5,085 nt of DNA from Candidatus Jordarchaeales archaeon (GTDB taxonomy: Archaea; Asgardarchaeota; Jordiarchaeia; Jordiarchaeales; Freyrarchaeaceae), in contig JAWAHN010000008.1 in assembly GCA_038889235.1 (NCBI GenBank), positions 1 through 5,085 of the forward strand, written 5' to 3'. Shown piece by piece: positions 456 to 1,433 of this stretch (positions are counted from its first letter, which is position 1; each line of letters begins with the position of its first letter). The translations under genes and the position numbers were made by a program. The notes beneath the pieces were generated by a model. It saw only the letters and a list, made by a program, of their open reading frames with translations. It had not been told where the DNA came from and searched no databases.

Positions 456-1433
456 TCACTTCGAGACCCATCCGCATCCAACTTCTCGGGCGATCGATAA
501 AGCTCTTTCAGCTATCTCGTTATATTCCCTCGCCAAGTCTTCTCTTCCTACTTTTTTTGAAGCCGTTATCAAGGCTCTGGCCCTTACGTAAGCGGCTCTT
601 AAACCATCGCAGTCAAGTTGTCCGTGGACGTTGCATATCGGGAAGCCAAGGTCATCTGGCCTCAAAAAGCACTTGTCACCGTACTTCTCCTTCACTTCCC
701 AACGTTGTGACGGGAGCTTCGGCTTCACCAAGTCCCAGTCCCAACGATCATGCTTTACTGGAAGCCCTTGCCAAGTCCTCTCTTCAAGCTCAAAGACGTT
801 CAGCGCTTGGAAGATCTTCTTCCTTAGCTCTCTCAATTCCTCTATCGCTGATTCCCTCAGCGTTCCCTCTTCTAACATCTTCTTGTGCTCGTTAACTATC
901 CTTATCGCTTCTCTGAAGATCTCAGCGTACTCCTCCCCGTGCTCCAGCCTCATCCCTTCCTCCGCATAACCTTGGATCAATAGTAAGTGCTTCACCATGC
1001 AGTCCCCGCACCTCATTTCTTCTCTACTGTAATGTTCTTCTAGCAACGCTAGTTGCTTCGCTATCTCAAGCAAATTGAACCTAGCGTCGTGGTGGTCGAA
1101 CGTTAACTTCATCTTTGGAACTTCTTCTTCCTCCTCTTCTTCAAGGCTCGCCTCGCAAATCACCTTCCTGTCCTTAGCGCACTTCAGAACGTTCTTATGT
1201 ACCATACAGACGATCGTCTTCTCCGACTCCTTCAGGTCTTGCTCTGAAAAATGTGGGGAGGATGGGTGGTTGTGCAGGACAACGTCGCAACGGGAAGGTA
1301 TCCTAACGCTCCTCCTCCCTCCTCTAACGAAAAGAACTTCGTGGTTCCTCAAGCACAGGGCGAACTCGCTATCATGTCTTTCTCCCAGCCTTTGAAGCAC
1401 CTTCGCTTCCTTCTTTATCTCTTCGCATATCAC
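456..1433 (-). CDS. 325-aa three-module protein: N-terminal JAB/MPN-like metallo-domain, E7 linker, helical CxxC domain, C-terminal Cys-containing domain
   Basis: ORF track; GTG start; E23 plus H54-N-H56-P-x5-S63-x2-D66 resembles the JAMM motif (HxH-x6-S-x2-D variant); RCGDCMVKH; KCFLRPDDLGFPIC...GLRAAYVRAR. Confidence 0.9.
   Translation of the reverse strand: MICEEIKKEAKVLQRLGERHDSEFALCLRNHEVLFVRGGRRSVRIPSRCDVVLHNHPSSPHFSEQDLKESEKTIVCMVHKNVLKCAKDRKVICEASLEEEEEEEVPKMKLTFDHHDARFNLLEIAKQLALLEEHYSREEMRCGDCMVKHLLLIQGYAEEGMRLEHGEEYAEIFREAIRIVNEHKKMLEEGTLRESAIEELRELRKKIFQALNVFELEERTWQGLPVKHDRWDWDLVKPKLPSQRWEVKEKYGDKCFLRPDDLGFPICNVHGQLDCDGLRAAYVRARALITASKKVGREDLAREYNEIAERALSIAREVGCGWVSK

Follow-up and report, generated by a model that had tools for sequence, protein, structure and literature searches.

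The known systems nearest to the domain described here are uncharacterised proteins of giant viruses, namely A0A5K0UBM3 of Yasminevirus, A0A7D3R2N5 of Fadolivirus and A0A2P0VP56 of Tetraselmis virus 1, together with GVMAG homologues, all of which belong to the same domain family. Small helical bundles with a His/Cys zinc site that includes a CxxC are known from the ZAS domains of RsrA and ChrR, and the Erv1/ALR sulfhydryl oxidases resemble the domain in being helical bundles with a CxxC at a helix start. Our literature search for the motif found no description of it, and no matching domain was found in the polyvalent-protein paper PMC5512222. Here we report that residues 108-218 of P0001, a protein encoded on a contig from an archaeal genome bin, belong to a large family of virus-borne domains, each of about 100 aa, that has as yet no name.

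Results and Discussion

A Three-Domain Protein Encoded on a 5-kb Contig

The window (the whole stretch of DNA that was analysed, 5085 bp) is an entire contig, C8, of a genome bin made of 8 contigs and 2.14 Mb. The gene of P0001 lies there beside an RHH gene, C2H2 zinc-finger genes and an Ig-like gene, and its features are as follows.

456..1433, minus strand: whole gene of P0001, 325 aa, three domains; GTG start at 1433, stop codon at 456-458 (open reading frame list and translation).
1143..1433, minus strand: JAB/MPN-like N-terminal domain, residues 1-97, with E23, H54-x-H56, S63 and D66 (family alignment and Foldseek).
1122..1142, minus strand: poly-Glu linker E98-E104 from the JAB domain to the helical domain (translation; pLDDT <50 at 101-103).
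780..1112, minus strand: four-helix-bundle domain, residues 108-218 (AlphaFold2 model, profile search, IMG/VR and BFVD).
987..1034, minus strand: His134...Cys142-x-x-Cys145-x-x-x-His149 tetrad, proposed metal site, at the turn between helix 1 and helix 2 (conservation 97-99%).
957..959, minus strand: Glu159, on helix 2 (conserved in 98% of family members).
819..833, minus strand: Arg201-x-x-Arg204-Lys205, on helix 4 (conserved in 90-98% of members).
459..779, minus strand: Cys-rich C-terminal domain, residues 219-325, with C255, C267, C275 and C320 (alignments, Atlas clusters and sequence relatives).

The original prediction had placed a helical segment with a CxxC at 789-1112. On the minus-strand translation this interval is exactly residues 108-215 of the 325-aa open reading frame, the predicted string is present as written, and AlphaFold2 folds it as a four-helix bundle. 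The model of the whole protein, built on an alignment of ten relatives, has three separately folded parts with a mean pLDDT of 84: a mixed alpha/beta part (1-97), four long helices (117-210) and a small alpha/beta Cys-rich part (about 224-324).

The N-terminal residues E23, H54-x-H56, S63 and D66 are conserved in the family alignment. A Foldseek search of the PDB with this part returned Pyrococcus JAMM1 (5lda) and AF2198 (1oi0) with a probability of 0.99-1.0 and E-values of 0.08-0.17, and its Atlas matches were Prok-JAB clusters. The spacing from H-x-H to the Ser is six residues, versus seven in the canonical E...H-x-H-x7-S-x2-D, and Pfam did not detect a JAB domain in the single P0001 sequence. 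The predicted structure suggests that residues 1-97 are JAB/MPN-like.

No part of the protein is more conserved than the C-terminal domain (residues 219-325), which has four invariant Cys. It superimposes on Atlas clusters of Nucleocytoviricota with a TM-score of 0.83 and an rmsd of 1.1 over 82 residues. Its sequence relatives, found at E 1e-10 to 1e-17, are small proteins, several with long Lys/Arg-rich tails, and one of them (E 2.5e-12) is encoded on a giant-virus-like contig of 105 kb (L093) that also encodes MutS, Pox_A22 (a faint match), dNK and Pkinase. Both non-JAB modules of P0001 have giant-virus counterparts. The two were seen together nowhere outside the archaeal family, and the gene adjoining the giant-virus homologue on L002 is not of the C-terminal-domain family. 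An IMG/VR scan with the alignment of the C-terminal domain found nothing. The start of another relative of the C-terminal domain, P0174, looks like a 2-cysteine-adaptor-type motif.

The Four-Helix Domain Belongs to a Large Virus-Borne Family

The domain reads D116-A-R-F-N-L-L-E-I-A-K-Q-L-A-L-L-E-E-H134, x7, C142-G-D-C145-M-V-K-H149, and continues to A-E-E-G160. A profile made from ten middle domains was searched exhaustively against 1.84 billion proteins (cluster representatives) and matched 1260 representatives at E<=1e-3 and 452 at E<=1e-10, the matches spanning nearly the whole profile (positions ~3-103). Outside the close archaeal family the E-values went down to ~1e-24 with full-length coverage. 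The consensus of a 139-member alignment starts D-P-x-F-N-L-R-E-I-x-K-Q-x-I-L-L-E-D-H and, after a short loop, continues K-R-C-x-D-C-I-x-K-H-x-L-T-I-E...E-E-A-x-T-L-D and later A-Q-x-L-R-x-x-R-K. Conservation over 162 instances peaks at N120, K126, L130, L131, E132, H134, C142, C145, K148, H149, E159, R201, R204 and K205. Twelve polar sites are each 87-99% conserved, and P0001 has N-K-E-H-C-C-K-H-E-R-R-K at them. The domain of P0001 thus combines a full-length match with the H-C-C-H tetrad, the conserved polar residues and the four-helix fold.

The original prediction had likened the segment to a motif of hypothetical giant-virus proteins. That motif is real and homologous: the family consensus is nearly identical to it, GVMAG contigs carry it, and cultured giant viruses are among the BFVD matches. 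The prediction had also named generic helical composition as what would explain the likeness away. Such a chance resemblance, through helical, Glu/Lys-rich composition, would fit the weak Pfam and PDB matches of family members, which are scattered coiled-coil and helical families. The profile E-values with full-length coverage, a tblastn E-value of 7e-18 and the same dozen specific polar residues kept throughout, and not just heptads, rule it out, and we regard it as barely conceivable.

AlphaFold2 predicts an up-down four-helix bundle with helices at 117-136, 143-162, 167-189 and 195-210 in the whole protein, and the domain modelled alone has a pLDDT of 93.2 and a pTM of 0.87. When this domain-alone model was searched against BFVD, the only matches at E<=1e-3 were the Yasminevirus, Fadolivirus and Tetraselmis virus 1 (TetV-1) proteins, with E 8e-5 to 7e-4, query-normalised TM-scores of 0.74-0.75 and 24-26% identity. 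The C-terminal domain was ruled out as the source of the BFVD matches of the whole protein, the domain-alone search assigning them to the middle domain. The best Atlas clusters for the middle domain are 100% viral, of Nucleocytoviricota, with TM-scores of 0.78-0.80. The PDB fold search (Foldseek and VIA wide) gave generic four-helix bundles only, at a Z of ~8-10.6, which is typical for any helical bundle and makes this comparison uninformative here.

No family in Pfam, PHROGs or NCBIfam was found for P0001 or the 139 members, whose matches there were scattered chance ones to helical families, and single and profile searches of the PDB sequences gave nothing below E 0.017. The kinship with Erv/ALR, hemerythrin or ferritin that had been proposed for checking found no support in Pfam, in the PDB sequences, in the conservation or in the folds listed. 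Erv1/ALR (PF04777) was not matched by P0001 at E<=10 or by the 139 members at E<=0.01, its FAD-binding Trp/His/Asn motifs are absent from the family consensus, and it is not among the fold matches listed. For hemerythrin and ferritin there was no match in Pfam or among PDB sequences, and fold scores cannot discriminate between bundles; the family has only two conserved His, near the turn of helices 1 and 2, and helices 3 and 4 are without conserved His or Glu ligands. A HEPN RNase was rejected as well, the R-x(4-6)-H of helix 4 being replaced by R201-x-x-R204-K205 without a conserved His after it.

Members in Giant Viruses

Significant matches to NCLDV sequences on the motif had been named as what would support the prediction, and these were obtained: an IMG/VR scan gave 257 viral contigs confirmed by tblastn with P0001's own domain, many of them named GVMAG, and the best matches, at GVMAG loci, reach 41% identity and E 7e-18. 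At one GVMAG locus a family-B DNA polymerase is encoded 3 kb from the domain gene. A 90-kb contig with a member is dense with genes of eukaryote type that lack introns (ELO, FA hydroxylase, kinases, DSPc, thioredoxin and NUDIX), a gene content typical of a giant virus. Two IMG/VR records of 485-536 kb gave no match to the NCLDV capsid (PF04451) or to Terminase_6N, an uninformative negative; the capsid profile was silent in the controls too.

The domain is at or near the C-terminus of proteins of 180-340 aa in 17 of the 19 GVMAG loci; one of the remaining two has two tandem copies and the other an open reading frame cut at the contig edge. Tandem two-copy proteins of the giant-virus type are P0015, P0023, P0035, P0036 and L055:4511-5308. 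In all five, the first copy has lost H134 and has changes at K148 and E159, and in three of the five H149 is changed too, while both Cys and R201, R204 and K205 are retained. The tandem form hints that the domain may work in pairs. A co-fold of two domain copies with Zn scored 0.00, which weighs neither way.

A Proposed Metal Site

Of 219 complete, distinct instances of the domain, 213 have all four residues of the H-C-C-H tetrad, and each position is 97-99% conserved. Five of the six exceptions are the first copies of the tandem giant-virus-type proteins, and the sixth (L090), from another genome of the same phylum, matches the family weakly. According to the AlphaFold2 secondary structure, His134 ends helix 1 and Cys142, Cys145 and His149 follow at i, i+3 and i+7 within the first two turns of helix 2, a predicted spacing that suits a tetrahedral zinc site. 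His-rich tails are a feature of metallochaperones and a signature of metal-handling proteins; tails of the H-x-H type are found on most close stand-alone relatives (P0012, P0013, P0014, P0018, P0026, P0031, P0039, P0046, P0063 and P0090), and in the archaeal branch the domain begins with H-H-D. The tetrad would thus form a metal site, most likely for tetrahedral Zn(II). As a whole, the domain is, in our preferred and moderately probable reading, a non-catalytic, metal-dependent (likely Zn) module that viruses attach to various enzymes. More speculatively, it could deliver metal to the attached enzyme, sense metal for it, or dock onto a partner that is conserved.

Redox-active dithiols, too, classically have a Cys-x2-Cys at the N-terminus of a helix, and this speaks against the metal reading. 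C142-x-x-C145 could be a redox-active dithiol/disulfide with its pKa tuned by the flanking His and Lys, and the domain would then act in viral disulfide formation or, like the ZAS anti-sigma domains, as a zinc-thiolate redox switch. No positions are more conserved than the two Cys (99%), whose place at the helix start fits redox CxxC motifs, and the pair persists even where both His are lost. Since the Cys are kept in the degenerate tandem copies where His is lost, they may have a role of their own, for example as a disulfide or in the structure. It is general knowledge that giant viruses and hyperthermophilic archaea use cytoplasmic disulfides, which also fits a redox role. However, phages of ordinary bacteria, in which no cytoplasmic disulfides would be expected, commonly carry the family, no Pfam match was found to Erv1/ALR, thioredoxin or other redox families, and the His-rich tails favour metal over redox chemistry. 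We consider a thiol-redox module improbable.

The His, Lys and Glu residues seem to be one functional group, because they are changed together in the first copies of the tandem proteins. K126, E132, K148, E159, R201, R204 and K205 are near-invariant in very distant viruses, which exceeds the needs of a simple structural zinc site, and these charged residues could serve catalysis or the binding of a specific ligand. A small metallo-enzyme could be built with E132, D/E133, H134, D144, K148, H149, R201 and a metal as a catalytic centre at the top of the bundle; the near invariance of acidic, basic and His residues in such distant viruses would agree with this, and the tandem form with its degenerate copy resembles a pseudo-enzyme pairing. 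But the domain is very small and usually joined to real enzymes, and it has no likeness to a known enzyme family or to a fold beyond generic bundles, so that a catalytic domain of its own is quite unlikely.

Phage Members and Their Fusion Partners

In the phage-type proteins the domain is N-terminal; some consist of the domain alone (~135 aa), and in others enzymes follow it. The fusion partners are topoisomerase IB, PolyA_pol/HAD_SAK/CPD RNA-repair (CCA-adding) modules, HExxH and phage lysozyme, and in the large phage proteins the profile search matched the domain at E ~1e-15. The domain is also present in a huge phage of 485,034 bp, recorded as 'uncultured phage' (LR745208.1). In a tailed-phage head module (L004:1092-22017), TerL, portal and head protease genes enclose a run of very large proteins: a PolyA_pol of 872 aa, an HExxH protein of 796 aa headed by the domain, NUMOD3 and a topoisomerase IB of 1135 aa. 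The gene of the 796-aa member lies between the portal and head protease genes. This layout suggests enzymes that may be packaged or injected.

The bundle could alternatively be a docking or targeting handle that binds protein or nucleic acid, with zinc only as a structural brace, and that recruits cargo enzymes to a shared partner, for instance to carry them into the virion or to place them on the genome. The position of the 796-aa HExxH protein, beside the large PolyA_pol and topoisomerase IB proteins, is what such a handle would predict, and those enzyme types themselves carry the domain in other phages; the conserved basic R-x-x-R-K patch with K126 and K148 could supply the binding surface. 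Against this, the capsids of giant viruses, tailed phages and archaeal elements are unrelated, which makes one capsid-targeting surface unlikely, and the giant-virus proteins have the domain at the C-terminus without a recognised cargo domain. We regard a docking or targeting handle of this kind as rather unlikely.

We favour the non-catalytic, metal-dependent module because the domain is fused to unrelated enzymes, in P0001 a zinc peptidase-type domain, and also stands alone. Viruses would couple it to various enzymes, and P0001 would be a case in which a JAB/MPN-type metallopeptidase domain precedes the module and a Cys-rich domain follows it, in a small virus- or plasmid-like element of hot-spring archaea.

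The Archaeal Branch and the Question of the Host

A word-indexed search of 5.8 billion proteins found only nine relatives of P0001, and the close family counts ten in all, full-length or partial. Their identities are 35-92%, every one derives from a hot-spring archaeal MAG or metagenome, and the JAB/four-helix/Cys-rich architecture was seen only in a small group of hot-spring archaeal contigs. The labels of the relatives vary (Desulfurococcaceae, Nitrososphaerota, Nanoarchaeales and Methanomethylicia), and because of this spread a mobile or mis-binned element, rather than a gene of the lineage, is suggested. The contigs of the relatives are 10-14 kb of small ORFans and, together with C8, have the look of a crenarchaeal-type virus or plasmid. 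Among the ORFans on the 13.8-kb contig of one relative (P0007) is a Cas_csx3 (ring-nuclease-type) gene (L087:11321-11857, minus strand), a possible viral anti-CRISPR. P0012, the closest of the stand-alone relatives, has 113 aa and a His-rich tail; its 8-kb ORFan contig, L091, has a weakly SPV1_VP4-like gene and a weakly matching C2H2 zinc-finger gene (1860-2279, 6283-6624), which suggests a portoglobovirus-like archaeal virus.

The middle domain was found in only 2 of 400 genomes of the phylum of the host bin and in none of the same genus, and its neighbours are small ORFans, RHH and C2H2 genes, which points to a mobile and not a cellular domain. The CRISPR spacers of the bin, which has CRISPR-like arrays on C1, C2, C3 and C5, gave no match to C8. 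A 24-nt match of window positions 672-695 to C5:15972-15995, with one mismatch, was rejected as a spacer: it lies in coding sequence and is chance-like. The tetranucleotide similarity of C8 to the bin is not diagnostic of the host. Since matches in the phylum are scarce and spacer matches are zero, the host of the element is unproven. Two further contigs of the bin, C6 and C7 (~5 kb), have a GC content of 0.42 versus 0.47-0.55 in the rest and may be other mobile elements or mis-binned pieces.

In a maximum-likelihood tree, made by a quick search on a short alignment, all archaeal rows fall on one side of a branch with an SH-aLRT of 96, the 'archaeal' label of several metagenomic rows being given by similarity alone, and on the other side giant-virus rows alternate with phage rows. 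The archaeal sequences thus appear to be a branch of their own, outside the giant-virus sequences, with no sign of a recent transfer. The 'rare archaeal-virus/NCLDV link' that had been supposed for the case of a real match is not supported in that form: tailed and huge phages commonly carry the domain, and the archaeal branch is separate. The resemblance to giant viruses is real but not exclusive, and is one arm of a virus-wide family.

It is very improbable that P0001 derives from a virus of the Asgard archaeon of the bin, with giant-virus-like modules from an ancient shared pool and the domain as a universal zinc-thiolate switch. The ancestors of giant viruses would have shared such a pool with the archaeal forebears of eukaryotes, and the switch would be the four-helix domain controlling the attached enzymes.

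Comparison with Known Systems

The domain is common to giant viruses of eukaryotes, to tailed and huge phages of bacteria and to elements of hot-spring archaea. Defining the family would in one step annotate many hundreds of viral proteins now called 'hypothetical'. It would also give a handle on a function kept by very different viruses, which is likely to be the handling of metal or a regulatory or docking role towards enzymes associated with the virion.

SmbP (3u8v), cytochrome b562 and designed Zn and di-iron bundles have the same up-down four-helix topology, with a Z of 8.4-10.6, but have no ligand positions in common and no sequence relationship with the domain. In the ZAS domains the motif is H-x3-C-x2-C, whereas in P0001 it is C-x2-C-x3-H, in reversed order. 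With this order, and with no Pfam match for the protein or the 139 members, the domain is not placed among the ZAS domains, which serve as an analogy only, a possible model of how a zinc-thiolate bundle could act as a switch.

Similar to P0001, the giant-virus homologues have the H-C-C-H tetrad and the R-x-x-R-K motif. Their domain is at the extreme C-terminus, behind a variable and sometimes membrane-spanning part, whereas that of P0001 is central. None of the PHROG and Pfam LPD families matches the domain, and the phage 'polyvalent'-style proteins that carry it are like P0001 in having it joined to enzymes, including the metallopeptidase type (HExxH). Unlike P0001, they have no JAB partner, and their genes lie in the head module of tailed phages. 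P0001 represents a distinct archaeal branch of the family and a new, JAB-containing architecture.
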